From the IMG/VR virus record IMGVR_UViG_3300027849_000009: a stretch of 64,000 bases of DNA; one strand, given 5' to 3'. Source of the DNA: a virus. Below are positions 17,058 to 35,156 of this stretch, in pieces. The notes under the pieces were generated by a model that saw only the letters and a program-made list of their open reading frames with translations, did not search any database and was not told the DNA's origin. Both the position numbers and the translations under genes were made by a program. Positions within the stretch are counted from its first letter, which is position 1, and every line of letters begins with the position of its first letter.

Positions 17058-17065
17058 TATAAATA
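17058..17065 (+). promoter_or_regulatory. T4-type late promoter
   Basis: TATAAATA 26 nt upstream of ATG 17092. Confidence 0.75.
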
Positions 17066-17091: not shown

Positions 17092-18543
17092 ATGCCAGCG
17101 TTAGGTTTAGATGAGTTTAAAAATATAGCGTCATCCGGTGACTATGCTGGCACTTATAGGCATGAAATTTTCAATCTCAAGATCAGAGACAAAAAACCAT
17201 TCATAATAGGCAACACTGAAGCGGGCAGAAAAGTTGTCGGCGTATCTTATGAGTATGATCCCCGCGATACTAGTCATAAAGGCACATTCACCTACTACAT
17301 CCACAACAAGAAAGAACTCATATCTGTATCTAATAGAAAGGTATTTAAAGATGGAGACTTTGGTGGAGGCAAAGCAGGATCAGGTGGTGGTGCTGAAGTA
17401 ACCAAGTTTACTGAGTCTACACAGTGCTACTATTGTGCCTATGTGTTCAAGCATGGACGTAAGATCGATCTGAAGAAACCTCCTACTACTGCTGAACTCA
17501 AATCATGTGAGAATCTGGTATATGCCACAAAGTCACTTGATGATTGTATCAAGAAAGGACCCGCAAAATGGTTCGAAGACCAGATATATGCTAAGACTGC
17601 TAATGTGATGTTCGAGAAATACAAGGGCAAGTTCAAAGGCACTGTATACTTTCATCGTTCTGGTGATGGCAGTAGGTCTAAGTTGATGGACAGCATCTAT
17701 CAAGCAAAGTTAATTTGTGCTAGAAAAGATCGACAGTCTGGTGAACCTCAAGCACCTGGTAGTTTCTCTAATGACAAATGGAATCCCGGTGACATATGGG
17801 CAACAACATTACCTAACGAAGCAAAACCTCTGCACGACTTCACAGATTCGTGGGGCGAACTCAATGATGCTGTAGCAAGACTGAGTGGTGCTTTCGGTGG
17901 TGATGCTAAGATTCTAGGCATATCTTTGAAGCGACTAGCAGGAATGGGTAAAGTACAAGAGTTCAATATTCCTGGCACCAAGACATTCGATGATATCTCA
18001 TTCTCACATTTTACCTTCGGTCAAATCAATAACTTCTTCTCATCTACTGATGCCTACTTGTATACATTAGTACAGGGCAGAATGCAGTTAAGAACATTCT
18101 CTACTACATCATCTTGGCAGGGACAGATTACTGGTGCGGCGGCAGCAGGTGGTAAGATTGGTGGTGGTAACTTAGCATTCTATCTAAATCTAGTCACTAA
18201 TGGTACAGTTAGAATGTTCGGTGCATTAGGAACTGAAGATAATCTCATCAGAAATGAAATAAATAATAACGCTAAATATAGTAATGATTTCTATAAGTTG
18301 TATGTTAATTTAGCGAAAAGTTCTAAGAACCAAAGGCAAGAAGTGCCGCTGTCCGAATCAGAGTTTGATAAGAAACTCAGTCAAGCGACAGATGGTTTTA
18401 GAGTATCAAAATACATTACCAGTAGATTTATAAATGAGTTGTTAAAATTAACTGCTAAAGAGCAGGACGAAATAATGACCTTGTGTTGGTTGTATGCATC
18501 TTCTGCAACAGACCAATCTAGTTATTATATTAAAATAGCATAG
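17092..18543 (+). CDS. PD-(D/E)XK-like nuclease-fold protein
   Basis: KWNPGDIW...GISLK motif; GAGGG SD before 17092. Confidence 0.6.
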   Translation: MPALGLDEFKNIASSGDYAGTYRHEIFNLKIRDKKPFIIGNTEAGRKVVGVSYEYDPRDTSHKGTFTYYIHNKKELISVSNRKVFKDGDFGGGKAGSGGGAEVTKFTESTQCYYCAYVFKHGRKIDLKKPPTTAELKSCENLVYATKSLDDCIKKGPAKWFEDQIYAKTANVMFEKYKGKFKGTVYFHRSGDGSRSKLMDSIYQAKLICARKDRQSGEPQAPGSFSNDKWNPGDIWATTLPNEAKPLHDFTDSWGELNDAVARLSGAFGGDAKILGISLKRLAGMGKVQEFNIPGTKTFDDISFSHFTFGQINNFFSSTDAYLYTLVQGRMQLRTFSTTSSWQGQITGAAAAGGKIGGGNLAFYLNLVTNGTVRMFGALGTEDNLIRNEINNNAKYSNDFYKLYVNLAKSSKNQRQEVPLSESEFDKKLSQATDGFRVSKYITSRFINELLKLTAKEQDEIMTLCWLYASSATDQSSYYIKIA

Positions 18544-18550
18544 AAATAGG

Positions 18551-18578
18551 TTGACAACCAGTACCAGTATGTTATAAT
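18551..18578 (+). promoter_or_regulatory. sigma70-type promoter
   Basis: TTGACA-16-TATAAT. Confidence 0.7.
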
Positions 18579-18610: not shown

Positions 18611-18907
18611 ATGAAGTCATTCAAAGTATATCTTCAAGAATCCATCAAAGTAAAGTGGAATAAAGTTGCTGATGGATACGTGAATAAAAAGATGGTGTAC
18701 AAACACGTTACTTCTGATGGTATGTATCAAATACGTATATCTGGTGCTGATTCTATGAAATTTAATAAAGATGGCAGTCAGAAAGTGATGCCAACAGTCT
18801 TTGATATGCATCCAGCATCATATAGTCCAAGATACCCCGTTAGCGGTTATAAGAATGTTACTATAGCGAAAGCAGAAGTTGAAAGGTGGATTGCTGATCA
18901 TGAATAA
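18611..18907 (+). CDS. Putative internal head protein
   Basis: N-terminus MKSFKVYLQE resembles the T4 capsid-targeting sequence (CTS). Confidence 0.65.
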   Translation: MKSFKVYLQESIKVKWNKVADGYVNKKMVYKHVTSDGMYQIRISGADSMKFNKDGSQKVMPTVFDMHPASYSPRYPVSGYKNVTIAKAEVERWIADHE

Positions 18908-20129
18908 TTTTAACGAGTTCATTACAGAAGCGGCACAAAAGAACACCCATATGACCCACATCGAAGATAAGGTCATCTACGGTGGTGCTAATGGAACTCG
19001 TCAAGCAATCAATGCTCTTCGTGAGTTAAGAGATATGCTTGGCGGTAAGAAAGAAGGTTCTGTATCAGTCAAGTGGGACGGTGCACCAGCAGTATTTGCC
19101 GGTACTGATCCCTCTGACGGTAAGTTCTTTGTTGCTAAGAAAGGTATCTTCAATAAGAATCCAAAGATATACAAGACTGATGCTGACATCGATGACGATA
19201 CATCTGGTGATCTCAATGACAAACTAAAACTTGCATTGAAGTATTTACCTGAACTTGGTATTAAAGGAGTCATTCAAGGCGACTTTCTATACAAGCGTTC
19301 TGAACTAAAGAAGAAAAAGATCGGTACAGAAACATATCTTACCTTTCACCCTAACACAATCGTGTATGCAGTACCCGTAAAACAATCTAAAGAACTTCTC
19401 GCTTCTAAAATCGGCATTGTATGGCACACTACATATACAGGTAGTTCTTTTGAAACTATGAGCGCATCATATGGTGTTGATGTAAACAAACTGAAGAAGT
19501 CAACTAATGTCTGGTCACAGGATGCTATATTGCGTGATGTGTCTAATGCTACGATGACTAAAAAAGAAACGGATGAAGTAAATGAAACTCTATCACAAAT
19601 TGGCAAACTTTTTAACCAAATCTCTGGAAGCACTCTTCGAGTATTATCCTCTAACCCAGGACTTGCACAGACCATCGAGACCTTTAATAACACCTACGTT
19701 AGACGAGGAGAAGTTATCGGAGACTCCAAAAAGCACGCCGAAAAACTCATCGCCTACATCAACCAAAAGTACCAAAAAGAAATCGACAAGCGCAAAACCG
19801 AAAAAGGCAAAGGCGCCCAGCAAGCAAAGCGCGACGAAATCCTCAAGTTCTTCAGCAAAGAAAACAAAATAAGTCTAATTAAGATGTTTGAATTGCAGAA
19901 ATTGATTGTTTTAGTTAAATTAAAACTTATAAATAACCTTAATAGATTAAGTAATATTGGTGCGTTTGTTAAAACTAAGAACGGATACAAGACTACTGGT
20001 CAAGAAGGTTATGTTGCAATAGACACACTTGGTGGTGATGCGGTGAAACTAGTTGATCGTATGGAGTTTTCATACAACAACTTTTCACCTGATATATTAA
20101 AAGGATGGGATAAACCAAAAGGTAAATAA
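18900..20129 (+). CDS. DUF6267-like protein; RNA/DNA ligase-like nucleotidyltransferase
   Basis: KWDG, QGD, EGYV and VKLV motifs; CTS-like MNNFNEFITE. Confidence 0.7.
   Translation: MNNFNEFITEAAQKNTHMTHIEDKVIYGGANGTRQAINALRELRDMLGGKKEGSVSVKWDGAPAVFAGTDPSDGKFFVAKKGIFNKNPKIYKTDADIDDDTSGDLNDKLKLALKYLPELGIKGVIQGDFLYKRSELKKKKIGTETYLTFHPNTIVYAVPVKQSKELLASKIGIVWHTTYTGSSFETMSASYGVDVNKLKKSTNVWSQDAILRDVSNATMTKKETDEVNETLSQIGKLFNQISGSTLRVLSSNPGLAQTIETFNNTYVRRGEVIGDSKKHAEKLIAYINQKYQKEIDKRKTEKGKGAQQAKRDEILKFFSKENKISLIKMFELQKLIVLVKLKLINNLNRLSNIGAFVKTKNGYKTTGQEGYVAIDTLGGDAVKLVDRMEFSYNNFSPDILKGWDKPKGK
19582..19872 (+). CDS. Putative overprinted K/S/T/P/A-rich basic protein
   Basis: +1 frame ORF inside the DUF6267-like gene, coinciding with a codon third-position shift to C/A. 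Confidence 0.5.
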   Translation: MKLYHKLANFLTKSLEALFEYYPLTQDLHRPSRPLITPTLDEEKLSETPKSTPKNSSPTSTKSTKKKSTSAKPKKAKAPSKQSATKSSSSSAKKTK

Positions 20130-20130
20130 G

Positions 20131-20565
20131 ATGGCAGATAAACCATTATCGTTTAAAGACTTTTTAACAGTTGACTACAGTCAGACTGGTGAAAGAGTAC
20201 AAGCGACAAACGCTAAACAGCGTAAAGAAACTGACGAAGCACTCGACTTTCAACAGAGACGTGCCCGCGGTCGTTCGATGAAAAAGAACAAAGCAAAGAT
20301 AGCGATGGGTCGTAGACGTGCCGCTAAGAAAACTGCTAGTCAAGATGTCCTTAAGAAACGTGCCCGCAAAGGCGCGATCAATCAACTATTCAAAAAATTC
20401 GCAAAGGGCACTTCACGGTCTGATTTACCTGCATCTCGGCGTCAAGAGATCGAGAAGCGTATCGAGAAAATGAAATCCAAAGTGAATATGATTGCACGTA
20501 AGAACTTACCTGCTATTCGCAAATTAGAGAAAGATCGCCGACAGGGTGGAAATACTCCAAAATGA
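20131..20565 (+). CDS. Basic hypothetical protein, putative head-associated
   Basis: Very K/R-rich; SFKDFL N-terminus; TDEAL possible cleavage site. Confidence 0.75.
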   Translation: MADKPLSFKDFLTVDYSQTGERVQATNAKQRKETDEALDFQQRRARGRSMKKNKAKIAMGRRRAAKKTASQDVLKKRARKGAINQLFKKFAKGTSRSDLPASRRQEIEKRIEKMKSKVNMIARKNLPAIRKLEKDRRQGGNTPK

Positions 20566-21809
20566 TTCCTTCCTTTAAACAGTATCTCGTAGAAGAGAAC
20601 CGTGAAGTGTTCTTCACATTCGGTCGTATGAATCCTCCTACGATCGGACACGGCAAACTACTGTCAGTACTATCCACTAAAGCGGGCAAGAATCCCTGGT
20701 TCGCTTATGTCTCACAATCACAAAACGCAAAGAAAGATCCCTTAACCTACGACCAGAAAGTGAAACACGTTCGCAAGATGTTTCCTAAGTTTGGTCGTAA
20801 TGTAATGCTTGATAAGAAAGTACGTACAGTGTTTGATATTGCTGTAATACTATTCGATCAAGGTTTCAATCGCATTACAATGGTTGTTGGTTCGGATCGT
20901 GTAACAGAATTTAAGACTCTCCTTGACAAGTACAATGGTGAGAAAGCGCGACATGGTTTCTACAACTTCGAAAAGATTATGGTTGTCTCTGCTGGTGAAC
21001 GTGATCCTGATGCCGAAGGCGTTGAGGGAATGTCTGCATCTAAGCAACGCGAGAATGCCAAGAACAATGATTTCGCATCATTCTCTCAGGGTGTTCCTAA
21101 GTCGATGAATGCGAGAGATGCAAAGCGTCTGTTCAATGATGTTCGCGGTGGGATGGGACTCAAAGAAACAACTACATTTAGAAATCACATTGAACTTGAA
21201 TCAGTATCAGAGACACGAGAGAAATTCATTCAAGGTGAGTTATTCAATCTTACTGACAAAGTTATTATTAGCGAGTCAGGTAAGTCGGGATACATTCAGA
21301 CTATTGGTACTAACTATGTTATCGTAGCATTAGATGAAGGTGGCATTACTCGTCAATGGATAGAATCAGTTGAGTTAGCAGAAGTACCAACAAGTCAGAT
21401 GATCGATAAGATTAAAGCATCTACTGTATCTAAGAAGCGATATCAGACAGCACTCAAAATACTAAAAGATGTTGTTGCTCGTAAGAAGAAAGAAGCGAAT
21501 GGTAAACCCATGCGTCACGGTATCGAATACTACGCTGGACAAATCGCTAAACAGTATGATATTAATCCTCGGGTTCTTGCTACTATGCATGAGACTAATG
21601 TTCCTGGATGGGGAACACCAGAAGCAACTAAGAAAGCGAAGAAGTATGTGCCTGGTCAGAATGAAGCGAAGGGTGACGAAGTTGCCATAGCAAGAGATGT
21701 TATCGACCAAGAACTTCAGACAGACAAGATTAAACATGACCGTATTCTTGATCGTGCGAGACTAAACCGCGCTAGACGCAAGAATAAACAAACAAATCCA
21801 AAAGTATAA
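20562..21809 (+). CDS. Cytidylyltransferase-like (HIGH-superfamily) nucleotidyltransferase
   Basis: FTFGRMNPPTIGH, VVGSDR and MSASK motifs; CTS-like SFKQYLVEE. Confidence 0.85.
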   Translation: MIPSFKQYLVEENREVFFTFGRMNPPTIGHGKLLSVLSTKAGKNPWFAYVSQSQNAKKDPLTYDQKVKHVRKMFPKFGRNVMLDKKVRTVFDIAVILFDQGFNRITMVVGSDRVTEFKTLLDKYNGEKARHGFYNFEKIMVVSAGERDPDAEGVEGMSASKQRENAKNNDFASFSQGVPKSMNARDAKRLFNDVRGGMGLKETTTFRNHIELESVSETREKFIQGELFNLTDKVIISESGKSGYIQTIGTNYVIVALDEGGITRQWIESVELAEVPTSQMIDKIKASTVSKKRYQTALKILKDVVARKKKEANGKPMRHGIEYYAGQIAKQYDINPRVLATMHETNVPGWGTPEATKKAKKYVPGQNEAKGDEVAIARDVIDQELQTDKIKHDRILDRARLNRARRKNKQTNPKV

Positions 21810-21812
21810 ATA
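21805..21812 (+). promoter_or_regulatory. T4-type late promoter
   Basis: TATAAATA 6 nt before ATG 21819. Confidence 0.7.
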
Positions 21813-21818
21813 GGACAT

Positions 21819-23819
21819 ATGAAAACATTTAATGCGCTATCAGAAGAAGTAACTCAAAAGCAACTCAATGATGTTGAGAAGTTTGCGGATCGTATTCTCG
21901 CCAAGTTTAATGTAGACATTGAATTTACTCGACACTTTGCGGATCGTATGAATGATGATCGAAACAAACCCGCAGTTAGTGTTGCGGAGTTACAGCAGAT
22001 ATTCAAAAAGATTGCAAGAAAGAAAGCGAAGGATATAAGACAGAATCCAGACAGTGAAGCGGTCATAAAAGATATTCAAAAAGACTTGAACTTGCCTGTG
22101 GTTATACGTTATAATAGAAACAAAGAAGAGTTTGAGGTTACTACAAAGACTATCATGCGCAAAAAAGATTTTAAAACCACAAGTAAAGTAATTACTACGG
22201 AAGCAAAAAAAATGAAAGATGACCCTTGTTGGAAAGATTACGAGATGGTAGGCACTAAGAAGAAGAATGGTAAAGAAGTGCCTAACTGTGTACCAAAAGA
22301 AGATGTGTCCTTAGAGTCAACAAAGGAATACGGTAAGTCTCAGGCAGCGATTGCTCGTAAGCGTCAACAGGCAGCAATGCGTCCTGGTGAGATGGACAAG
22401 TTAAAGCGTCTCAAAGATATGCTCAAGAATGCTAATAATAAAGTTGGTGTTGTTAAAAAAGAATCTGTTGATGAAGCAACTATTGAAGAAGCAACAATGG
22501 GCCCAGACAAGTTAGAGATGCTACGTAAAGCATATGGTTCTGTTAATAAGATAGACCCCTCATCTCCTACGTATAAGAAGATGGAAAAAATGATTGATGG
22601 TATGAGTCAAGACCATTTGAAAGGTCTTGCTTTTGCTAAGATTAAATTCTTATCTATGTTGGCAGCAACTAAGTTACGTTACAAGCACAACGTAAAGTTA
22701 GACTTTGGTGACTACTGGGCAGAATCGGTCGATCATGATCTAGAACAAATCGAAGAAGCAGTTCAAGATTGGACAGTCACCGTTACAAAACCTGTCAACA
22801 AATTAAAGAAAGGTGCCACACAAAAAGTTAAAGCACGTTCGGCATTTGAAGCAATTAACAAAGCAGTGAAACTGTGGGGCGATCCTGCTCTTAAAGCGGC
22901 ACCAATGAATTCGTTTAGTATTACTAAAGAATCTGTTGAACTTGACGAAGCGGCGGGCAAATATTCAAAATCTGGTGATAATCTAATGTATAAATGGGGT
23001 GATGTTAATAAAGCACTAATGAATGCTGGTTTAAACCCTAGAGCAATATTAAATGTTCTTACCGATCTTTCTAAAAAGGAAGTCAAAGAGTCTGTTGAAC
23101 TTGACGAAGGGTACCAAAATAAAGTTTTAGCAAGTAAAGGTCAGTGGGTATTTCAAAATAAAGGCGAAATTCAGCAAATTAAATATAAAGGAAAAGTAAT
23201 TGGAGATGGTTACTATGACCAAGGGTCAGATAGTTTTGATGTAAGTTGGACAGATTTTAAGCGTGGTCAAAAGAATAACCGCAAAGGAGGAACAATGTTT
23301 GATACCGCACAGGATGTCGTAGACTTTTTCTCTAAGATGAAAATTACAGAGTCTGTTGACCTTGACGAAGCAAGACAAATGAAAGACCCTAAGAAAGACT
23401 CTATGGTCACTAAGAGTGGTAAGACTATCGTAATCGACAAGTCTAAGGAATCAGAGTACCTCAAGAAAGGTTGGACTCTTGCTGAGAATGAGACTGTCAA
23501 AGAGTCTAATAACTTCTTTAAGTTCCGCGACTCATTGAATGAGAAGAAAGATTCTGCTGCCGATTTGTACTTTGATACTTACTCTGCCGCAGTACAACAC
23601 GCAAAGGCGCAAGCAGAGAAGAAAGGTTTTGAAGTTGTCGAAGATGATTGGTTCACTCAAGTGACCACAGGCAAAGGGAAACCTGGTCGTGGTAAGACTA
23701 CACGCCACACTCTGAAACTTCTCAAGAATGATAAACCAGTACGTAAAAGTCTTGCTATTCAGGTATACAACCGTGATACCAATAAGAACACTTACGAACT
23801 TAATATGTACATATCCTAA
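21819..23819 (+). CDS. Modular putative internal head polyprotein
   Basis: CTS-like MKTFNALSEE; modules separated by repeated ESV(E/D)LDE linkers. Confidence 0.75.
   Translation: MKTFNALSEEVTQKQLNDVEKFADRILAKFNVDIEFTRHFADRMNDDRNKPAVSVAELQQIFKKIARKKAKDIRQNPDSEAVIKDIQKDLNLPVVIRYNRNKEEFEVTTKTIMRKKDFKTTSKVITTEAKKMKDDPCWKDYEMVGTKKKNGKEVPNCVPKEDVSLESTKEYGKSQAAIARKRQQAAMRPGEMDKLKRLKDMLKNANNKVGVVKKESVDEATIEEATMGPDKLEMLRKAYGSVNKIDPSSPTYKKMEKMIDGMSQDHLKGLAFAKIKFLSMLAATKLRYKHNVKLDFGDYWAESVDHDLEQIEEAVQDWTVTVTKPVNKLKKGATQKVKARSAFEAINKAVKLWGDPALKAAPMNSFSITKESVELDEAAGKYSKSGDNLMYKWGDVNKALMNAGLNPRAILNVLTDLSKKEVKESVELDEGYQNKVLASKGQWVFQNKGEIQQIKYKGKVIGDGYYDQGSDSFDVSWTDFKRGQKNNRKGGTMFDTAQDVVDFFSKMKITESVDLDEARQMKDPKKDSMVTKSGKTIVIDKSKESEYLKKGWTLAENETVKESNNFFKFRDSLNEKKDSAADLYFDTYSAAVQHAKAQAEKKGFEVVEDDWFTQVTTGKGKPGRGKTTRHTLKLLKNDKPVRKSLAIQVYNRDTNKNTYELNMYIS
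22926..23370 (+). repeat. Three copies of a 25-bp linker repeat encoding (K/T)ESV(E/D)LDE
   Basis: AAAGAATCTGTTGAACTTGACGAAG at 22926-22950; variants at 23085-23109 and 23346-23370; partial copy at 22458-22476. Confidence 0.9.
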
Positions 23820-24151
23820 TGAAAAAGTTTAGTTCTTTCATAAAGGAAGACTGTACTTGTGAAGAACTAGAAATCACAGAGGCGGAATATCAGGGTAAAT
23901 CTGTTACACTAAATAATCCCTTTAGACTGCCTTCTGGTAATAAGAAGAAGTTTGGCGTATACGTTACCAATAAGAAAGGTAATATAGTTAAAGTTACGTT
24001 TGGTGATCCTAACATGGAGATCAAACGTGATGATCCCGAAAGACGAAAGTCCTTCAGAGCGCGGCACAATTGTGCTGATAAGAAAGATAAAACCACTCCG
24101 GGTTATTGGAGTTGCTATCAATGGAGGGCATCTGCGAAAGTAGATAACTAG
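23819..24151 (+). CDS. DUF6321-like protein with CTS-like N-terminus
   Basis: MKKFSSFIKE; FGDPNM, RRKSFRARHNC and YWSC motifs. Confidence 0.75.
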   Translation: MKKFSSFIKEDCTCEELEITEAEYQGKSVTLNNPFRLPSGNKKKFGVYVTNKKGNIVKVTFGDPNMEIKRDDPERRKSFRARHNCADKKDKTTPGYWSCYQWRASAKVDN

Positions 24152-24156
24152 ATTGT

Positions 24157-24456
24157 ATGGGAAATATGACAAACGCAGATCGACTAGGCAGAATAGAGGA
24201 CAAGATTGACCAAATGTCCGAAGCAATCATCTCACTCGCAAGAGTGCAGGAGAAAGTGTCGGACTTGGAGAATCGAAGAGCGGAGCAACACGAACGTATG
24301 AATCAACACTCTAAGAAATTAGATGACATAGATATTAAAGTCACTACGTTGATGGAAAAAGTAAACAACATACAGATGGTGGGACTCGCGGCAGGCGGTC
24401 TGATAGCAACAATTTTTTTAGCACTACTAACTGGGCAGATAGTAATCGGCCAATAA
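24157..24456 (+). CDS. Coiled-coil protein with C-terminal TM helix
   Basis: RLGRIEDKID heptads and hydrophobic C-terminus. Confidence 0.7.
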   Translation: MGNMTNADRLGRIEDKIDQMSEAIISLARVQEKVSDLENRRAEQHERMNQHSKKLDDIDIKVTTLMEKVNNIQMVGLAAGGLIATIFLALLTGQIVIGQ

Positions 24457-24474
24457 ACGCAACTGGAGAACAAA

Positions 24475-25503
24475 ATGAATCCCGAGTACATTAAAAATAT
24501 CGCCCAACTATGGCAAGACGTACAAGAAGGCGAAAAGAAGAAATTAGATCCCGTAGATGATAAAGCGAACGATAAGAAGTTCGTTAATCGCAAAGACAAA
24601 GACATTGACAACGATGGCGATGTTGATTCATCTGATGAGTTTCTGCATAAGAAACGCAAAGCAATCGATGATAAGATTGATGGCGGTAAGAAACCTGCTA
24701 AGGAATCTTGCGGCGATGACGATAAGAAGGTGAAGAAAGAGTCGGACGAAGATATGACTCCTTGTCCTGATTGCGAAGGTTCTACTGAAAATCACGAACC
24801 TGATTGTCCTAAAGCAGACAAAGGTAAAAAAGAAGTAGAAGAAGGCAGAGTGAAAGATCAAATGGTTACAGATTCCGAGAAGATGTCTAAGAAAGACTTC
24901 ATTAAGAAGTACGGAAAAGAAATGGCAGATGATCTTTATGAAGCAAAAGAATATTCTTACACGGTTGTTCATGCTAAGAAAGGTAAGGTAGTAGTTACTG
25001 CCCCTACTTCATATGATGCGGCACAGAAAGCGGCAAAGCAATGGAAACTGAAGTCTACCGGTGGTGTTGATGCGCATCTTATGAAAGAGTCAAACACTGT
25101 TACTCATGCTCACCACGGTTACGGTGAAATTCTGCAACGTACTGATGAAGGCATAGATGTTATGTTTGAACATGGCGTTGAAATGGGTATGAGCGAAGCA
25201 ACTCTAACATTCCTAGAGACTGTTGCCGCTACTACACTAGCAAAGAAAGCGACTCAAGTTGCTGGCGGTGGAGAGAAGACTGGACAAAATGCTTCTAAAG
25301 GCGAGAAAGAATTTGCTGATAAGCATGACAAAGATGATCCAAAGTTAGCGGCAGATGATGCTGATGGACACGAAGATGCTACTAAAGCAGGACGTGCAGT
25401 TAAGTCTCAGTCTGGTACTCGTGGTAACGAACCTCGTATCGGTGACAAGACTATTGTAAATCCTGTTAAGGGTGCTGTAACTAAAACTACTGGTAAGGAA
25501 TAA
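24475..25503 (+). CDS. Modular charged protein, putative head-associated
   Basis: DIDNDGDVDSSDEFLH EF-hand-like motif; several xxE cleavage-like sites. Confidence 0.75.
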   Translation: MNPEYIKNIAQLWQDVQEGEKKKLDPVDDKANDKKFVNRKDKDIDNDGDVDSSDEFLHKKRKAIDDKIDGGKKPAKESCGDDDKKVKKESDEDMTPCPDCEGSTENHEPDCPKADKGKKEVEEGRVKDQMVTDSEKMSKKDFIKKYGKEMADDLYEAKEYSYTVVHAKKGKVVVTAPTSYDAAQKAAKQWKLKSTGGVDAHLMKESNTVTHAHHGYGEILQRTDEGIDVMFEHGVEMGMSEATLTFLETVAATTLAKKATQVAGGGEKTGQNASKGEKEFADKHDKDDPKLAADDADGHEDATKAGRAVKSQSGTRGNEPRIGDKTIVNPVKGAVTKTTGKE

Positions 25504-25507
25504 GATT

Positions 25508-25771
25508 ATGCCTATTAGAGGTCCTAAGAATGCTACTCCAACTCCAATCGGTTGGGTTTCACCAAAAGGCGAATTGCTAAAGAGTCAACGTATTACTTCT
25601 CAGCAAATCGCAGAGTTTCATGGCGATGTTCCATCAACTGCAACTCAGTTAAACGAAGCACCTGTTCACCAGACTTCATTGGGTGCTATGACAGATGTGG
25701 AACTAGAAGTAACTTCACTGCATTATGATATCGACTTGTCTTCGGGTATCACCGAAGAGTTAGAAGATTAA
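25508..25771 (+). CDS. Hypothetical protein
   Basis: PT..GWVSPKGELL motif. Confidence 0.7.
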   Translation: MPIRGPKNATPTPIGWVSPKGELLKSQRITSQQIAEFHGDVPSTATQLNEAPVHQTSLGAMTDVELEVTSLHYDIDLSSGITEELED

Positions 25772-25772
25772 T

Positions 25773-26090
25773 ATGTCAGAAGAACTAGATAAGATCCATC
25801 ATCCTGCTGATACCAACGGTGATGGAAAGGTATCAAAAGAAGAAGAAGCAATGTACTTAGAGTTTAAACGTAAAGAACTCGACGATGCTGATGCTATGCG
25901 AGACGCACAACGTAAGATGGCGTGGTTCGCATTGTTCGGTATGTTGTTATATCCCTTTGCTGTTGTACTTGCTTCTCTATTAGGTATCGATACAGCGGCG
26001 AAGACTTTAGGTGATATGGCGCCTACTTACTTTGTATCTGTATCATTAATTGTTGGTGCTTTCTTTGGCGCTCAGGCACTGAAGAAATAG
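25773..26090 (+). CDS. EF-hand plus two-TM membrane protein (holin candidate)
   Basis: DTNGDGKVSKEE followed by two TM helices. Confidence 0.65.
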   Translation: MSEELDKIHHPADTNGDGKVSKEEEAMYLEFKRKELDDADAMRDAQRKMAWFALFGMLLYPFAVVLASLLGIDTAAKTLGDMAPTYFVSVSLIVGAFFGAQALKK

Positions 26091-26129
26091 AAGTCTATAT
26101 ACTATACCAACATATAGACTATAGCAAAT

Positions 26130-26498
26130 ATGAAACTTTTTGAAACACTAGATGAATCTACGTTCCTGATCTTCTCAGCAAAGAATTATTACAATCCTAC
26201 TTGTATCGATGCTGAGGAGTTCTACGAAGATATAAAACGATTTAAGTATATCAAGCGTCTATTGAACAGACATCTTGATGGTGGTAAACTGTCAGTGAAC
26301 TTGATATTAAATCATCTCATTGTTGTATTCAATGTGTTTGGTAATGAACCAGGTTTAAAGATGTTAGAGTACAAGTTAGATGACCGTCACTGGACATCAG
26401 TCAAACCATTCCTTGTATATCTAAGAGTAATAACAAACGAAACATATACGGGCATTGAAATGGATGCGCGTGTTATCGAAGAGTTGAGAAAGATATGA
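26130..26498 (+). CDS. Conserved T4-like hypothetical protein
   Basis: Y.NP.C...EF.ED.KRFKYIKRL and LILNH motifs. Confidence 0.8.
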   Translation: MKLFETLDESTFLIFSAKNYYNPTCIDAEEFYEDIKRFKYIKRLLNRHLDGGKLSVNLILNHLIVVFNVFGNEPGLKMLEYKLDDRHWTSVKPFLVYLRVITNETYTGIEMDARVIEELRKI

Positions 26499-27082
26499 GT
26501 TTAGCAAGTAAAGCGGGTGATCTGCTCTATACGTTTAGATTCTTGAAGATGTTGACTACACCTTGGGATGAGACTGATGCATTTAAATTAGGTCTTATTG
26601 ATGAGAAAGGTAAGCGAATCAAGAGCGAGAAAGTCGATTCATCTGACAAGAAAACCGCGTTAGGTCCTTTCGTTCGTCTCGTGTTTAATGTCAAAAGAGC
26701 AATAGGCAAGATACCTGGTGGCAAGACTACTTTAGGTTCTTATGCGGCAGCACTCTTTCTACTCAAAGAACATTATAGTGTCGGTGAGAATAATCTAACA
26801 AGAATATGTGTCGAAGCGGGTATTGATCCACTTGATATGATAGCAGAAGACCATGCTTGGTACGTACTTGAGAACAACCAATTAGCACCAGGAATATATC
26901 GCGTAAAGGGTGATAAACTTCTTGGCGAAGGACTCGAAGATGCAGTTCGTGCTAAAGACCAAATTCGTATACTTGACGAATCATTTCCAGTCGGTGATGT
27001 GTTCGGCATGAACGTGTATGAAGCAATGCACCTAACTACTAACAAGATGGTGTATATCACACTAGGAGAAATCTACAAATGA
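26495..27082 (+). CDS. Conserved T4-like hypothetical protein
   Basis: FRFLKMLTTPW..TDAFKLGLIDEKG motif. Confidence 0.8.
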   Translation: MSLASKAGDLLYTFRFLKMLTTPWDETDAFKLGLIDEKGKRIKSEKVDSSDKKTALGPFVRLVFNVKRAIGKIPGGKTTLGSYAAALFLLKEHYSVGENNLTRICVEAGIDPLDMIAEDHAWYVLENNQLAPGIYRVKGDKLLGEGLEDAVRAKDQIRILDESFPVGDVFGMNVYEAMHLTTNKMVYITLGEIYK

Positions 27083-27255
27083 AATCGTTCAAAGAATTTA
27101 TGGTAGAAGAACCTACAGTCTCCACTGGTCCCGGTATCGCAGGCACAAGTCCTGGTGATCCTGCTGACTGGACACATGGAAAGAAGAAAAAGCGTAAACC
27201 CCTAACTCGTTCTTTTATAGAGATAATGGGCAAGCGTAAAAAACTTATCAAATAA
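27079..27255 (+). CDS. Small basic protein with CTS-like N-terminus
   Basis: MKSFKEFMVEEPT...KRKKLIK*; AGGAG SD. Confidence 0.7.
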   Translation: MKSFKEFMVEEPTVSTGPGIAGTSPGDPADWTHGKKKKRKPLTRSFIEIMGKRKKLIK

Positions 27256-27269
27256 AACCTCGAAATAGA

Positions 27270-27298
27270 TTGACATCCTCTCGATTGTAGTGTACAAT
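27270..27298 (+). promoter_or_regulatory. sigma70-type promoter for nrdAB
   Basis: TTGACA-17-TACAAT. Confidence 0.7.
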
Positions 27299-27352
27299 AA
27301 GCACTATATAAACGACTAGACCCAAAAATAAAATAATAGATGAGTAGAATTA

Positions 27353-29341: not shown

Positions 29342-29353
29342 GAGAGTAGATTA

Positions 29354-30322
29354 ATGGCATTATTAGAATTCAGTAAAAGTTACAAACCATTCTATTACCC
29401 TTGGGCGGTAGACTTGACAAAGAAACATGAAGAGATACATTGGGTAGAAGACGAAGCAGAGTTAAGCGAAGACGTACAAGATTGGAAAACTAAGTTAAGT
29501 GAAGAGGAGAAGGAGTTTGTTACACAGATTCTACGTCTATTCACACAGTCAGATGTTCAAGTAGGCGAGAACTACCACGAGTTATTGATCCCTAAGTTTA
29601 AGAACAACGAGATCCGTAACATGCTATCGTCCTTTGCTAATCGCGAAGGTGTACATCAACGTGCATATGCTCTGTTGAATGATACGCTTGGATTGCCAGA
29701 CGAAGACTTCCACAAGTTTCTTGAATACAAAGCGATGGCAGAGAAACTGGACTTCATGAAAGAAGGCAGTATCAATACACATACAGGTCTTGCACTAGTA
29801 TTAGCACAGTCAGTATTCAACGAAGGTATGAGTTTGTTCTCTTCGTTCGTTATGCTATTGAACTTCCAGCGTTTCGGTAAGATGAAAGGCATGGGTACTA
29901 TTGTTGAGTGGTCTATTCGTGATGAGACTCTACACGTACAAGGCAACGCTAAGTTGTTCCGTGAGTTCTGCGAAGAGCATCCACGCATTGTCAATGACGA
30001 ATTAAAGTCAAAGATTTATGAGATGGCAAAGAATGCTGTTAAGTTAGAAGATAAGTTTATTGACTTAGCATACAACAACCACGAGATCGAAGGTCTTGCA
30101 AAAGAAGATGTTAAGCAATACATTCGACACATTGCTGATCGACGCTTGTTACAACTAGGCATGAAACCTAAGTTTAAAGTAAAAGAGAATCCATTACCTT
30201 GGTTGGACTGGGTACTCAATGGAGCATCTCATGATAATTTCTTTGAGAAGCGAGTCACTGAGTACTCTGTAAATGGTATGGACGGTGATTGGGGATGGGA
30301 TGAAGAAGGAGTGCCTGCATGA
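29354..30322 (+). CDS. nrdB: Ribonucleotide reductase class Ia beta subunit
   Basis: Di-metal ligands D, EGVH, E, DETLH; NFFEKRVTEY. Confidence 0.97.
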   Translation: MALLEFSKSYKPFYYPWAVDLTKKHEEIHWVEDEAELSEDVQDWKTKLSEEEKEFVTQILRLFTQSDVQVGENYHELLIPKFKNNEIRNMLSSFANREGVHQRAYALLNDTLGLPDEDFHKFLEYKAMAEKLDFMKEGSINTHTGLALVLAQSVFNEGMSLFSSFVMLLNFQRFGKMKGMGTIVEWSIRDETLHVQGNAKLFREFCEEHPRIVNDELKSKIYEMAKNAVKLEDKFIDLAYNNHEIEGLAKEDVKQYIRHIADRRLLQLGMKPKFKVKENPLPWLDWVLNGASHDNFFEKRVTEYSVNGMDGDWGWDEEGVPA

Positions 30323-30468
30323 TGGAAGACACCCGTAGATTTATGACTGAATGTCCGGTATGTGATAGTAACTGTTTCATCGATGTGTTAAACGTCGATG
30401 AGGCAGTGATATACTGTCCCATGTGCGGAACTGAAGCAGAAGTGGAAGAGGTTTTTATAGAAGACTAA
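30319..30468 (+). CDS. Small acidic zinc-ribbon protein
   Basis: CPVC...CPMCG, 49 aa. Confidence 0.7.
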   Translation: MMEDTRRFMTECPVCDSNCFIDVLNVDEAVIYCPMCGTEAEVEEVFIED

Positions 30469-30498
30469 ATAGTGTTATCTTCAATCAAGGTAGCACTA
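30464..30498 (+). promoter_or_regulatory. Late promoter variant with RBS-occluding hairpin
   Basis: ACTAAATA at 30464-30471; stem 30470-30481 pairs with 30487-30498. Confidence 0.6.
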
Positions 30499-30499
30499 C

Positions 30500-32143
30500 A
30501 TGAAACCCACTATAGCATTGTATGAGGGTCATGATACTAATCTAACAGTATATGACCCTAATACCGACTCGTTCTACATATATGAATTTGAACGTGTTTC
30601 AGGTATTAAACACCACAACATAAAAAATCGTACGGGTAGCAATGGTTTATCTACCAGCGCAAATGTTCAATATCTACATATTATTCTGAATCATCTTAAA
30701 GAAGTTCATGGCATTGAAAATGACTTTGGCACATTTATCTTCAAACCCATTTGGTGGAATATATCATACATTGACCGTAGTATTATCAATTCAGACAAAG
30801 AGATTTTACCAGTCATCGATCACCATGATGCTCATGCATGGTGTGCATATGGACAGGCACCTGAATCGTTCGAGAACACTGCTTGTATAACTTATGATGG
30901 TTGGGGCGAAAACACCGCATTCAAGTACTCGTGTTTCAAAGGCATCAATCGACATTCAGTTGAACCCATGTATTATAATTTCTCGATGGTCTACACTGCT
31001 ATGGCACACTCTCTCAAGATATTACATAATACTATGGATCTTGATCTCCCGGGTAAACTAATGGGATTATCTGCATACGGTGAAGTGAATCGCACGTGGT
31101 CAGATATAATGAAAGATTCTATCAAATCAGACTGGTGGAAATATAAACTAAACAAAGATACAGGATCTAAACCACCTGCCACCTGGAACGACTCACAAAA
31201 TCCATTACTTGTGATGAGAAAACAGATCAATCCGTGTATTCAGACAACTGATTATAACATAAAACTAGAGAACACTAAAGCATTCATGCTTGCTAGGTCT
31301 GCGCAGATTGCATTCGAAGAAGGTATCGTCGAAACTATTAAAGAAGAGTTCCTTGATAAGATTGAAGCGCACGATAACAATCTGATAATATCTGGTGGTA
31401 GTGCATTAAATGTTCTTGCTAACGAAGCAATCAAACGTGCATTTCCTGATGTCAACATATACATCCCACCAAACTGTCATGATGGCGGTCTAAGTTTTGG
31501 TATGTTATATGAACATCTAAAGACTACTAAGAAATACGATGTCACACAATCTGGTCCAAGAATATTTGATTACAAATATATGGATCCGATGATTAAACTA
31601 TACGGCGCAAAGAAGGTCAGTATTAATGATATTGCAGACTTACTTAAAGAGCAGAAGATAATAGGGATGGTGATTGGTAACATGGAAGTAGGACCGAGAG
31701 CATTAGGCAATCGTTCTATACTATGTGACGCATCTAACCCTAAGATGAAAGACACACTCAATTGTCGTGTTAAGTTCCGAGAGTGGTTTAGACCGTTCGC
31801 TCCTATATGCAGAAAGGAAGATGCACCTAAGTATTTCTACTCACCAAACTTTGATAACATGGAATGTATGCAATTCGTCGCGGATGTGTTGCCAGAGTAT
31901 CAAACTAAACTATTCTCTGTAACACACTACGACAATACTGCCAGACTGCAGGTGGTGACGGAGGAGAGCAATGCCGCAATCTATGACATACTGACAGCGT
32001 TCGATGGAGTACTAATAAACACTTCCTTGAATGTTCAAGGTAAACCTATTCTAAATACCTTTGATGAAGCATTTCATGTTTTACAAAAGACTGGTCTAGA
32101 CCATATAGTGGTAGAGTATGAAAATGATTATTGGTTATTCTAA
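30500..32143 (+). CDS. O-carbamoyltransferase (NodU/CmcH/TobZ family)
   Basis: GHD, HH.AHA, DG.G, GKLMGL, GG.ALN, GPRALGNRS, FRPFAP, NTS.N. Confidence 0.92.
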   Translation: MKPTIALYEGHDTNLTVYDPNTDSFYIYEFERVSGIKHHNIKNRTGSNGLSTSANVQYLHIILNHLKEVHGIENDFGTFIFKPIWWNISYIDRSIINSDKEILPVIDHHDAHAWCAYGQAPESFENTACITYDGWGENTAFKYSCFKGINRHSVEPMYYNFSMVYTAMAHSLKILHNTMDLDLPGKLMGLSAYGEVNRTWSDIMKDSIKSDWWKYKLNKDTGSKPPATWNDSQNPLLVMRKQINPCIQTTDYNIKLENTKAFMLARSAQIAFEEGIVETIKEEFLDKIEAHDNNLIISGGSALNVLANEAIKRAFPDVNIYIPPNCHDGGLSFGMLYEHLKTTKKYDVTQSGPRIFDYKYMDPMIKLYGAKKVSINDIADLLKEQKIIGMVIGNMEVGPRALGNRSILCDASNPKMKDTLNCRVKFREWFRPFAPICRKEDAPKYFYSPNFDNMECMQFVADVLPEYQTKLFSVTHYDNTARLQVVTEESNAAIYDILTAFDGVLINTSLNVQGKPILNTFDEAFHVLQKTGLDHIVVEYENDYWLF

Positions 32144-32156
32144 GGAATTATAACAG

Positions 32157-32612
32157 ATGTGGAATATGAATGAAAGTGTATTCGAACCCAGCGAAGAGTT
32201 TTTAAAAGACTATGTTGGATTTGTGTATCGTATCACTGAGATAGATACAGGTAAGATGTATATAGGAAAGAAGTTCTTCTGGAAACCCAAGACACTACCC
32301 AAGAACTCTGTACGTAAAAGAAAGATAAAAATGAAAGTACCTTCGGACTGGCAGAAGTATTATGGTTCGAGTGAACATCTATTAGAGTCAATCAAGAGAA
32401 CTGGCGTTGATAACTATCACCGTGAAGTTCTAAAGTTATGCACAACTAAAGGCGAATGCTCCTACTATGAAGCAAAGTTACAATTTGAATACGATGTCCT
32501 ACTCGACGAACAATACTACAATGCGTTTATCGGTTGCAAAATACACGCAAAGCATTTGCCCAAACCCGCTATCGAAATACGAACAGCAGAACCTTGGTTC
32601 AATAGACCTTAA
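32157..32612 (+). CDS. GIY-YIG nuclease-domain protein
   Basis: GFVY...YIGKK and YYGSS motifs. Confidence 0.8.
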   Translation: MWNMNESVFEPSEEFLKDYVGFVYRITEIDTGKMYIGKKFFWKPKTLPKNSVRKRKIKMKVPSDWQKYYGSSEHLLESIKRTGVDNYHREVLKLCTTKGECSYYEAKLQFEYDVLLDEQYYNAFIGCKIHAKHLPKPAIEIRTAEPWFNRP

Positions 32613-32615
32613 ACT

Positions 32616-34364
32616 ATGAGGAATCTAATCGCCGCTAATTGGGGGCATGACGCCTCACTATGTTTCTGGAATGATGTTGCGAAAACATTTCATACTATTG
32701 AGATAGAAAAACTTGTAGGTATAAAACACTACAGAGGTCACGCACGTAAGGATGAAGAACTAGAGATTCTTAAAAGGTGTGCTAAGATAGCAGAAGAAGA
32801 GTTTGGCATACCCAACGACTATCACTGCATCATTCGTGGCAATCTATTGAACGATATCAAGAAAGAACAGATTGAAAATGGCACGGGTCGTTTGACAGAT
32901 AATAAAGTTTCTGATGATATGATGCTCGATGTTGATAACATTAATGCGGCATTTAATACTAAGAATATTGATATCACATATCGACATCATGAAGCACACG
33001 CATGGAATGGATTCGCTCCTTCGGGATTTGACAAAGCAGTCATACTTACTATGGATGGTGGTGGTAACGATGGGTTCACTCACTTGTTCACTGCTGAACA
33101 TCCTAATAAACCTCTGACAAGTCGTACACGAATACATGGAGTTCAAGCGCATGGCAGAAACTATACTCAGGCATGCCTATGGTCGTTATACAGTATAATG
33201 CAAAGCACCGACTGCTCGTTAGATGTTGCGGGTAAAGCAATGGGTGCATCGTCGTACGGAAACACTGAAAGCGATCCCTACTCGACTGCAACGAAACTGT
33301 TTTTGAGGACTAACTCCGCTTGGAAAAACTTTAGTCCTGGCAGAATGCTGTACGAGAAACATTACAATCAACCTCTGAAAGACGGTACTAACAGCAAGAT
33401 TAAGTTTATCGAAGCATTTAGTACTTCGCCCGAAGTGTACAATCCCTATAAACTATTTATTGATGAGATCGATTGGCAAACAGAATGTGATATGGCAAGA
33501 GGCATTCAAGATGCGTTTGTTAAAGATGCTATAAAATGGTTCAAAGAGATTATGAGTGTTAGGAACATAAACCTAGATGACTACGACAGAAATGTGGTGT
33601 TCTCTGGTGGTAGTGCGTTAAATGTACTGTTCAATGATATACTACAGCGAGAGATGAATATCAATCTATTCGTGCCGCCTAATCCAGCAGACCAAGGAAT
33701 TCCCTACGGTATGCTCGTGCAATGGATGGTCGATCATGCAACACAATACTCGCGTGAAGAAACTACGTACTCTGGTCAAAAGATACAAGACATGGAGGAC
33801 TTACAGAAATATTATCATTCACACAAAGGCAGAATGACAACTATTGCAGATGTAGCAAGCATACTGAAAGATGATAAGATTGTCGGACTCGTGCAAGGTG
33901 GCATGGAAGTAGGTGCGAGAGCATTAGGCAATCGTTCTATACTTGCTGATCCAAAGGGCGCAGATAAGAAAGACAAAGTTAATGTAGTAAAGAGACGCGA
34001 AGCATACCGTCCGTTCGCGCCAGTATGTAGATTAGAAGATGTAGAGACTTACTTTGACTCAGTTCGTTATGACAATCTATCTTATATGAATTTTGCGATA
34101 AAGACTCGTGAGGAACATATAGATAAGTTAAGAGCAGTTACTCATGTTGATGGGACAGCAAGAGTACAGACAGTTACTAAAGAACAGAATACAATACTAC
34201 ATGATTTATTAAGTGAATTTGATGGTGTATTATTGAACACTTCTTTCAATGTGAAAGGATCTCCAATACTAAATACACTTAAAGAAGCGTTCTATATGCT
34301 TGACGAAACCACACTCGATCATCTGGTAGTAGTAGATGAACATAACACAATATGGATTTTTTAA
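32616..34364 (+). CDS. O-carbamoyltransferase (NodU/CmcH/TobZ family), second paralog
   Basis: GHD, HHEAHA, DGGG, GKAMG, GARALGNRS, YRPFAP, HVDGTARVQ. Confidence 0.92.
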   Translation: MRNLIAANWGHDASLCFWNDVAKTFHTIEIEKLVGIKHYRGHARKDEELEILKRCAKIAEEEFGIPNDYHCIIRGNLLNDIKKEQIENGTGRLTDNKVSDDMMLDVDNINAAFNTKNIDITYRHHEAHAWNGFAPSGFDKAVILTMDGGGNDGFTHLFTAEHPNKPLTSRTRIHGVQAHGRNYTQACLWSLYSIMQSTDCSLDVAGKAMGASSYGNTESDPYSTATKLFLRTNSAWKNFSPGRMLYEKHYNQPLKDGTNSKIKFIEAFSTSPEVYNPYKLFIDEIDWQTECDMARGIQDAFVKDAIKWFKEIMSVRNINLDDYDRNVVFSGGSALNVLFNDILQREMNINLFVPPNPADQGIPYGMLVQWMVDHATQYSREETTYSGQKIQDMEDLQKYYHSHKGRMTTIADVASILKDDKIVGLVQGGMEVGARALGNRSILADPKGADKKDKVNVVKRREAYRPFAPVCRLEDVETYFDSVRYDNLSYMNFAIKTREEHIDKLRAVTHVDGTARVQTVTKEQNTILHDLLSEFDGVLLNTSFNVKGSPILNTLKEAFYMLDETTLDHLVVVDEHNTIWIF

Positions 34365-35113
34365 TGTTAAAATTTCAACAGTACATAAACGAACAAGCAA
34401 TAATAGAACAAGCAGAACTAGACCTAATCAACGAAGGCGTAAATGATCCAGCAATCTTTAAAGCAGTGTTTCTTGCTGGTGGTCCTGGTAGTGGCAAGTC
34501 GTTCATTGTTGGCAAAACTGGATTAGGTAGTTTTGGATTTCGTGTAGTCAACTCTGATGATGCATTTGAAAACTCTATGAAGAAAGCAGGCATGGAGATG
34601 AATCCGGATAACATCTTCTCTGTTAAAGGACAAGAACTACGTGGTAAAGCAACTAAGTTGACTGCCGCTAAACAAGAGATGTATCTTAAAGGTCGTCTCG
34701 GTATTGTTATTGATGGTACTGGTAAAGACTCTGCTAAGATTAAAAAGCAACGTGCGGCACTAGAGAAGATGGGATACGAAACTGCAATCATTATAGTGAA
34801 CACCAACTTAGAATCCGCTGTTGATCGTGATACAAAACGTCAACGCTCGATTGGTAAGAAGATGCTGGAACCCATGTGGCAGGCAGTACAAGATAATATC
34901 GGAGCATACCAACAGATGTTTGGTCAAGAGAATACATTCATTGTTGATAACTCAGACGTTGATGGTGTTACTGATAAGAAAGAAATCTTGAAATTGATCG
35001 ACAAGAAAACAATGGCAGCATACAAGGGAATTGGTGCATGGTCTAAGAGACCAGTTAAAGGATCTCGTGCTAAGAAGTGGATTAAATCTGAGTTAAAAAA
35101 TAAGACTAGATAA
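34364..35113 (+). CDS. P-loop kinase (zeta-toxin/PNK-like) with CTS-like N-terminus
   Basis: AGGPGSGKS, N.D, IDGT; starts MLKFQQYINE. Confidence 0.8.
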   Translation: MLKFQQYINEQAIIEQAELDLINEGVNDPAIFKAVFLAGGPGSGKSFIVGKTGLGSFGFRVVNSDDAFENSMKKAGMEMNPDNIFSVKGQELRGKATKLTAAKQEMYLKGRLGIVIDGTGKDSAKIKKQRAALEKMGYETAIIIVNTNLESAVDRDTKRQRSIGKKMLEPMWQAVQDNIGAYQQMFGQENTFIVDNSDVDGVTDKKEILKLIDKKTMAAYKGIGAWSKRPVKGSRAKKWIKSELKNKTR

Positions 35114-35127
35114 TAGTAAGAAATAGG

Positions 35128-35156
35128 TTGACAGGCGTACTGTGATCGTGTATAAT
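35128..35156 (+). promoter_or_regulatory. sigma70-type promoter
   Basis: TTGACA-17-TATAAT. Confidence 0.8.

Follow-up and report, generated by a model that had tools for sequence, protein, structure and literature searches.

Leaders resembling T4 capsid-targeting sequences on basic proteins and enzymes of an uncultured marine T4-like phage

Introduction

In a stretch of 64,000 nucleotides of viral DNA (IMG/VR record IMGVR_UViG_3300027849_000009, the whole of which is called here the window), eight genes lying between positions 18,611 and 35,113 encode proteins that begin with a short N-terminal peptide, or leader, which resembles the capsid-targeting sequence (CTS) of the internal proteins (IPs) of phage T4. 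Judging from the comparison of sequences, these leaders are probably CTSs of the T4 internal-protein type, with propeptides that a gp21-type protease would cleave and with a cargo that would be packaged into the head. An earlier sequence-only reading of the window had proposed leaders of this kind; the resemblance is real and specific on several independent comparative tests: the CTS positions, the maturation site of the capsid protein gp23, the fact that some orthologues have the leader and others lack it, the linkers of fused proteins, the predicted disorder, the basic cargo and the breadth of the distribution all agree, while packaging, cleavage and injection, which were part of the same proposal, are steps that we still infer.

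The T4 system has been dissected by mutagenesis (Mullaney and Black 1996), according to which residues 4 and 7 are the main determinants of targeting by the CTS of IPIII, while processing depends on residues 8 and 10 (PMC9026906), with gp21 cleaving behind the Glu of an L/I-x-E motif (PMC9026906). Apart from the CTS, the IPs of T-even phages are unrelated to one another (PMC3012670).

The phage behind the window is an uncultured marine T4-like myophage. Of the relatives with complete genomes in GenBank, Phage C48C1 (Kyanoviridae) is the closest to it, the remoter ones being Methylophilales phage Melnitz, Pelagibacter phage HTVC008M, Stenotrophomonas phage DLP_6 and the T4-like cyanophages, and a megablast search of the region against the GenBank phages found no close relative.

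Results and Discussion

Eight protein starts with a common leader

The leader-bearing proteins of the window are the following (a slash marks a cut or a putative cut, here and below):

18611..18907, plus strand: 98-residue basic protein, isoelectric point (pI) 9.5, leader MKSFKVYLQE
18900..20129, plus strand: DUF6267 protein of 409 residues, an RNA-ligase-like covalent nucleotidyltransferase, leader MNNFNEFITE
20131..20565, plus strand: 144-residue very basic protein, pI 11.3, 30% Lys+Arg, N-terminus MADKPLSFKDFL, with a degenerate leader (SFKDFLTVD) without Glu
20562..21809, plus strand: HIGH-type nucleotidyltransferase of 415 residues with a NadD/PPAT-like N-domain, leader MIPSFKQYLVEE
21819..23819, plus strand: 666-residue basic modular protein, a candidate polyprotein, N-terminus MKTFNALSEE
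23819..24151, plus strand: 110-residue basic protein with an HVA1/DUF2945-like core, leader MKKFSSFIKE and a second site, EITE/AEYQGK
27079..27255, plus strand: 58-residue basic protein resembling T4 gp61.1, leader MKSFKEFMVEE
34364..35113, plus strand: P-loop kinase of 249 residues, Zeta_toxin/AAA_33/PNK-like, leader MLKFQQYINE

All eight N-termini reported by the sequence-only reading are present at these starts (8 of 8). For the kinase, the start at 34364 is favoured over an ATG at 34352, since the former overlaps the stop codon of the preceding gene by one base.

As a strict core we took [FY]xx[FY][ILMV]xE or, with the start residue, M-x2-[FY]-x2-[FY]-[ILMV]-x-E. This core occurs nine times in the 19,986 residues of the 105 ORFs (open reading frames) called in the window, and six of the nine occurrences fall within the first nine residues of a protein (those at 18611, 18900, 20562, 23819, 27079 and 34364), when 0.15 would be expected from the rate elsewhere (Poisson P = 1.7e-8). 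The aromatic pair itself (F4 and F/Y7) is in place in 18611, 18900, 23819, 27079 and 34364 and displaced by one residue in 20562. The two other leaders are weaker: 21819 is partial (F4, L7), having A-L-S-E without the second aromatic, so that its MKTFNALSE fits a looser form, and in 20131 the FxxFL is displaced by four residues with no Glu behind it, in a protein that is 47% identical to one of C48C1 starting with a canonical MLSFKQFVSE. A tail of the L/I-x-E type (including M-V-E in 27079 and L-S-E in 21819) closes seven of the eight leaders and is absent from 20131.

The likeness to the T4 IPs is one of a ten-residue N-terminal tag, with aromatics at positions 4 and 7, Ile or Leu at 8 and Glu at 10, which ends in the gp21 motif L/I-x-E and heads basic proteins otherwise unrelated to one another; in the window these four positions are kept and the others are variable. 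According to the T4 sequence, ipII and ipIII start with MKTYQEFIAE and ipI with MKTFKEF, which is one residue apart from the MKSFKEF of 27079. When the strict motif was searched as a degenerate DNA pattern in the T4 genome, it matched ipII, ipIII and gene 61.1 only, and the reversed pattern, used as a control, gave 0 matches. The likeness does not extend to the mature parts, which have no homologue among the IPs (tblastn of the T4 IPs against the window gave nothing below E 0.01), but such homology is no strict requirement, since the T-even IPs are themselves mutually unrelated apart from the CTS. The T4 IPs also differ in size, being 95-193 residues long, whereas the window cargo includes enzymes of 249-415 residues and the 666-residue modular protein (four of the leader proteins have 58-144 residues and four have 249-666), and in that the window genes, with their presumed packaging, form a cluster within the helicase-primase-nrdAB interval and follow early promoters.

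The third T4 match, gene 61.1 (NC_000866, 18966-19130, minus strand), lies between genes 41 and 61 and encodes a hypothetical protein of 54 residues that starts with MKTFKEFIKE; it may be an unrecognised CTS-bearing protein. It shares with the window protein at 27079 the leader, a Gly/Ser/Pro-rich middle, a Lys run, the size class and the genomic neighbourhood, but beyond the leader the likeness is weak (pairwise E 3e-4), and gp61.1 is acidic (pI 5.5) and is no known virion protein. A strict-motif match in C48C1, MKDYSHFMVE, was rejected as a false positive: a comparison by eye with the T4 UvsW sequence suggests that it is in all likelihood the N-terminal domain of the UvsW helicase.

A portable module with a wide distribution

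Comparison of homologues and structure prediction indicate that the leader is a portable module, lying outside the folds of the cargo. For DUF6267, 101 of 120 close homologues retain a leader, whose positions 2, 3, 5 and 6 vary freely. We surveyed this family through representatives of 50%-identity clusters, in which a core-start motif was sought near the N-terminus: where the core start could be placed, 43 representatives have a leader, with some 3 to 20 residues between it and the core, and 46 begin directly at the KN(T/L)H core (44 further representatives were left unplaced by the motif search, several of them visibly with a leader). The homologues in cyanophages and podophages are leaderless, and cyanophage Syn1, one of these, has zero strict-motif matches in its genome. 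Cultured phages with the leader include DLP_6, whose DUF6267 protein (AAY80_066) begins with MMKFTQFLAE, as well as Melnitz and HTVC008M. The kinase has the leader directly ahead of its GVNDPAIFKA core in 104 of 120 homologues, the nucleotidyltransferase has SFKQYLVEE in 119 of 120, at a variable distance from the start codon, and the core of the 110-residue protein occurs without leader in Pelagibacter and Roseobacter podophages. In AlphaFold2 (AF2) models, the leader is the sole N-terminal segment with a predicted local distance difference test score (pLDDT) below 50 (residues 1-10 of DUF6267 and 5-10 of the nucleotidyltransferase).

The observation of the leader reaches well beyond the window. 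In a clade-wide test on 80 IMG/VR loci (846 kb) around DUF6267 homologues, the strict motif was found 182 times at ORF starts and 39 times elsewhere, and the tagged proteins form 33 families by their first module (one of them probably spurious), among which are a HAD-like protein, a neighbour of the GC533 type (described in the last section) and many small proteins. Among 173 distinct leaders, the first aromatic is Phe in 99%, the second is Tyr or Phe in 100%, the next residue is Leu or Ile in 93% and the Glu is present in 100%. These counts leave a practically negligible probability to chance, or to a compositional bias of N-termini in an A+T-rich phage: a Met-Lys start is indeed common among phage proteins, but neither the P of 1.7e-8 in the window nor the 182 versus 39 of the loci would follow from it, and the reversed-pattern controls gave 0 to 1 matches per strand per genome, with none in T4 or C48C1. 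We thus rejected this explanation on the motif counts.

The proteins behind the leaders are, moreover, uniformly basic. In the window, all eight have a pI of 9.4-11.3, against a median of 5.9 for the other 97 ORFs, 13% of which are above 9.3 (Mann-Whitney P = 5e-5), and in the 80 loci a pI above 9 is found in 97% of the mature parts (173 distinct leader proteins) versus 41% of the untagged ORFs (P = 2e-25). Within the DUF6267 family the median pI is 9.2 for leader-bearing and 8.6 for leaderless members (P = 0.002). The pI of the T4 IPs ranges over 8.9-9.5.

The leader end, the capsid protein site and the fused forms

Taking GSFLTE/A as the maturation cut of T4 gp23, we aligned the gp23 sequences of T4, C48C1, Melnitz, HTVC008M, DLP_6 and Syn1, in which the corresponding sites are:

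C48C1: GFLTE/T
Melnitz: AFLSE/A
HTVC008M: AFLGE/I
DLP_6: SLLGE/A
Syn1: GMLQE/V

The leader tails of the window (FITE, YLQE, YINE, FIKE) have the form [FY][IL]xE and so match the gp23 maturation site of the relatives, and one leader tail of Melnitz, FLSE/A, is identical to the gp23 site of the same phage. The protease gp21 (Peptidase_S77) was found in all four complete relatives tested (C48C1, Melnitz, HTVC008M and DLP_6).

Additional evidence comes from proteins of other phages in which the same modules are fused, with an [LIM]-x-E/[AS] linker standing at the place of the leader:

P0243: leader, 110-residue module, DESILE/A, then DUF6267
P0360: module 1 of the window 666-residue protein, ESVME/A, then DUF6267
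P0310 and P0361: nucleotidyltransferase and DUF6267
Melnitz gene 18 and P0480: nucleotidyltransferase, then the modules that the window encodes at 21819 and 23819

The small, 110-residue module always starts with (A/S)EY.G(K/R), straight behind an [ILM]-x-E that reads ITE/A in the window, LNE/A in P0243 and MME/S in Melnitz, where the module follows MME/SEYQGK inside a 650-residue protein. The 666-residue protein at 21819 is built in a similar manner, with the linkers KESVELDE/A, KESVELDE/G, TESVDLDE/A, ATIEE/A and EQIEE/A (those of the KESVELDE type being encoded by a 25-nt repeat in 4 copies), and in other phages its modules are encoded by genes of their own that begin with a leader, or else form part of fusions with the nucleotidyltransferase or DUF6267. 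The kinase also has additional sites, IIE and LINE, ahead of its conserved core. As far as can be read from the sequences, the fused forms with their linkers point to cleavage.

The fusions also bear on the possibility that what is shared is not a peptide signal but a feature of the mRNA around the start codon, such as an operator for translational control of the RegA type or an A/U-rich start for high expression. The starts are indeed A/U-rich (ATG AAA .. TTT AAA ..) and RegA is encoded by the relatives. It is the residue class, however, and not the bases, that is kept, with Tyr and Phe alternating (TAT, TAC, TTC, TTT), as do Ile, Leu and Met (ATT, ATA, CTT, CTC, ATG); the peptide is kept at distances of 1 to 7 codons from the ATG, and equivalent L-x-E peptides lie inside fused proteins, far from any start. 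Residue-class conservation and the variable distance led us to reject this alternative, which we consider very improbable.

The cargo enzymes

Three of the cargo proteins had been described by the sequence-only reading as a ligase-like protein, a HIGH-type nucleotidyltransferase and a P-loop kinase, and the searches bear out these assignments. The ligase-like protein is DUF6267 (Pfam PF19782, E 5e-104), whose invariant residues in 98 sequences are K58-x-D60-G61 (the KxDG of motif I), E369-G370 (motif IV) and K383 (motif V). Its AF2 model has a mean pLDDT of 93.6 and a fold that is most like that of RNA ligases: these are the best large matches in VIA-align, with middling Z values of 7.7-8.1 over 170-205 residues (the Naegleria nick-sealing ligase, 5cot, Z 8.1; the trypanosome REL1, 1xdn, Z 8.0; T4 Rnl2 and Trl1, 2hvq and 6n0t, Z 7.7 each), versus 6.2-6.6 for the DNA ligases, to which Foldseek gave weak matches (E 0.2-0.4). 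We use the term RNA-ligase-like, and not RNA ligase, because the structural scores are middling. A helical insert spans residues 221-348.

The nucleotidyltransferase carries the motif TIGH at residues 27-30, with G29 and H30 invariant, and its N-domain was matched by Foldseek to nicotinate mononucleotide (NaMN) adenylyltransferase (NadD) and PPAT with a probability of 1.00 (target TM 0.55-0.61). The Pfam family PF01467 is just under the cut-off (19.6 versus 21 bits), and phrog_3041 and phrog_395, 'cytidyltransferase', match with E 8e-63. The C48C1 'cytidyltransferase' (63440-63520) is annotated from MNPPTIGHG, a start that leaves out the first strand of the fold; a leader, KNFSQYLLEE, is encoded in frame upstream of it, probably from a non-ATG start. 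The kinase has the Walker A motif GPGSGKS and is above the cut-offs of Zeta_toxin (PF06414, 37.7 bits, cut-off 22.3) and AAA_33 (PF13671, 34.9 bits, cut-off 27), with a further match to phrog_505, polynucleotide kinase (E 3e-10). In HTVC008M the kinase gene lies between those of DUF6267 and the nucleotidyltransferase, and the three enzymes are linked through fusion and through this adjacency. Sequence searches of the Protein Data Bank (PDB) with DUF6267 and the nucleotidyltransferase gave no match, NCBIfam added nothing, and the 98-residue protein at 18611 has no match in Pfam or PHROG.

The domain set, as assigned from the sequences, would fit RNA repair, a NadR-like salvage of nicotinamide adenine dinucleotide (NAD) and the last steps of coenzyme A synthesis alike, and the role after injection that the sequence-only reading had suggested, a kit for RNA end-healing and sealing or for the rebuilding of NAD and nucleotides against host defences, is speculative. 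With the RNA repair enzymes of T4 (Rnl1, Rnl2 and Pnkp), the set has in common the ligase motifs of DUF6267, a fold closest to Rnl2, the RNA editing ligase and Trl1, and a PNK-like P-loop kinase linked to DUF6267. It differs in the Z of only about 8, in the helical insert 221-348, which replaces the usual C-terminal domains, and in that the T4 enzymes are not packaged, unlike the proposed cargo; a phosphatase or 2H domain was not found.

The enzymatic nature of part of the cargo has a bearing on an explanation in which the proteins are indeed targeted and cleaved and yet act as DNA-condensing or core-filling proteins of the capsid, any enzyme activity after injection being irrelevant or absent. 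This would agree with the uniformly high pI of the cargo, with the many families that are small, basic and non-enzymatic, and with the leaderless cyanophage orthologues, which show that the enzymes work inside the cell. The catalytic motifs are, nevertheless, invariant in the leader-bearing DUF6267 and nucleotidyltransferase proteins, which fits active enzymes, wherever these may be located, and we hold a purely core-filling role to be quite unlikely.

Promoters of the leader genes

The promoters and late-promoter motifs in and around the block of leader genes are:

18551..18578, plus strand: perfect sigma-70-type promoter (TTGACA, 16 nt, TG-TATAAT; 12/12), ahead of the first leader gene
19928..19935, plus strand: TATAAATA, the T4 late-promoter motif, in the 3' part of the DUF6267 gene, 203 nt ahead of 20131
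21805..21812, plus strand: TATAAATA, 6 nt ahead of the ATG at 21819
27270..27298, plus strand: sigma-70-type promoter (11/12), ahead of nrdA, at the start of the unit whose last gene is the kinase

A second perfect sigma-70 promoter lies at 35128. The perfect promoter at 18551 implies early transcription of the block 18611-27255 and, together with those at 27270 and 35128, places the tagged genes in early-type units of the replication module. In T4, too, transcription of the IP genes is both early and late. The motif at 19928 may be a late promoter or a mere by-product of conserved coding sequence: in C48C1, TATAAATA likewise lies inside the DUF6267 gene, 223 nt ahead of the next gene, and coding constraint may explain this common position. 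That at 21805 is of uncertain function, because the ATG is too near for a normal leader mRNA. In the 156-kb genome of C48C1, 7 of the 22 plus-strand motifs fall within the 11-kb leader block 57171-68417, which makes up 7% of the genome (Poisson P ~0.001, for a block delimited after seeing the data). Outside this block, the C48C1 motifs are mostly ahead of structural genes.

Proposed packaging and its alternatives

If the leaders work as the CTS does, the aromatic pair would dock each protein onto the scaffolding core during prohead assembly, and the gp21-type prohead protease would then cut behind the Glu of the leader, at a [FY/L]-[IL]-x-E site like that of the major capsid protein and matching the L-x-E linkers of the polyproteins. 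The mature, basic proteins would remain with the packaged DNA and enter the next host alongside it, and the ligase-like, NadD/PPAT-like and kinase enzymes would then be on hand ahead of any phage gene expression; the same enzymes would be made again inside the cell, since their genes also have early promoters.

Several observations weigh against packaging and cleavage. The tagged genes belong to the replication module and follow perfect sigma-70 early promoters, and their block is not enriched in the late motif, TATAAATA at 17058, 19928 and 21805 being three of the eight in the window. Two of the eight leaders are degenerate. The 'x' positions of the nucleotidyltransferase leader vary little and the leader abuts the first strand of the fold, so that it could also serve the enzyme itself. 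The 64-kb window, which is part of the genome, does not include a gp21-type protease or a gp22/gp23 head module (nor does the nearest record, a 37-kb fragment), and our literature searches found no virion proteomics or N-terminal data for leader-carrying phages. Finally, the leaderless orthologues of Syn1 are annotated as hypothetical and not as virion structural proteins, which indicates an intracellular role for the enzymes; leaderless orthologues are, moreover, core genes of the T4-like cyanophages, and hence the enzymes would work mainly inside the infected cell.

Part of these observations would also be expected if the leader served to dock the proteins onto some other partner than the prohead, for instance a chaperone, a host factor or a complex for replication or nucleotide synthesis, the cargo being neither packaged nor cut. 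The position of the genes between the helicase and the primase and nrdAB, behind perfect early promoters, would suit such a role, as would the several cargoes that are nucleotide or nucleic-acid enzymes; T4 gene 61.1 belongs to the replication module as well, and its product, which has the same N-terminus, is not known from the virion, and a basic charge equally suits DNA- or RNA-binding proteins in general. What docking leaves unexplained is the constant ending in a protease motif ([IL]-x-E, with Glu in 100%), the identity of the tail with the gp23 cleavage site, the L-x-E linkers at the module borders of the fusions and the fact that, of the three known internal proteins of T4, two carry the pattern. 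For these reasons we consider docking without packaging unlikely, and a CTS with a cleaved propeptide the probable function of the leader.

A broader proposal, which we advance tentatively and at slightly less than an even chance, is that the marine T4-like clade of the C48C1, Melnitz and HTVC008M relatives uses the tag and the L-x-E linkers as a plug-in loading system. At least 30 basic cargo families would be injected in this way, as shuffleable single genes or as polyproteins, the RNA-ligase-like, NadD/PPAT-like and kinase enzymes among them, and T4 gp61.1 would be a fourth CTS protein.

Relation to known packaged proteins, and significance

The loading of diverse proteins into the head is known from giant phages: in phiKZ, 201phi2-1 and SPN3US, head and ejection proteins are cut by gp21-like proteases at S/A-x-E (PMC9026906). 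As proposed here, a diverse cargo (in their case including a virion RNA polymerase) is loaded into the head and trimmed behind a Glu, but their propeptides are long and share no common ten-residue tag, and these jumbo phages are unrelated. The T4 ADP-ribosyltransferase Alt is packaged, trimmed by gp21 and injected, with processing at both the N- and the C-terminus (PMC9026906); according to this description, it resembles the proposed cargo in being a natural enzyme that is packaged, trimmed and injected, and differs in having both termini processed instead of a single N-terminal tag. In the literature that could be searched, CTS-like tags outside the T-even and jumbo phages are not described.

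Should the leaders function as they do in T4, the proteins that abundant ocean phages inject on infection, a stage that is almost unstudied outside T4 and the jumbo phages, could be predicted from a simple sequence signature. The internal-protein idea would then extend from a few small inhibitors of coliphages to natural enzymes and polyproteins in phages that infect SAR11, OM43 and related marine bacteria. For DUF6267 and the nucleotidyltransferase that accompanies it, whose genes are conserved in hundreds of T4-like cyanophage genomes, this would be a first clue to function, and the tags and linkers would suggest natural means of loading proteins into capsids of the T4 type.

Neighbouring genes of the window

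Upstream of DUF6267, positions 17092-18543 encode a conserved protein of 483 residues (phrog_1462, cyanophage cluster GC533), which has no leader in the window; in several IMG/VR loci, and in Melnitz (MQGFKTFLSE), the neighbour of this type does carry a canonical one. A TATAAATA motif lies 26 nt ahead of the ATG of the 17092 gene. The basic tagged block is split by six leaderless acidic genes at 24157-27082 (pI 4.6-6.3), two of which encode C-terminal hydrophobic stretches. Adjoining nrdA and nrdB, both of which are encoded in the window, the region 30500-34364 contains long paralogous ORFs (547 and 582 residues) on either side of an ORF of 151 residues. Further downstream, and as judged by eye, the ORF at 55589 looks like gp32 and the minus-strand ORFs beyond it look like baseplate genes.

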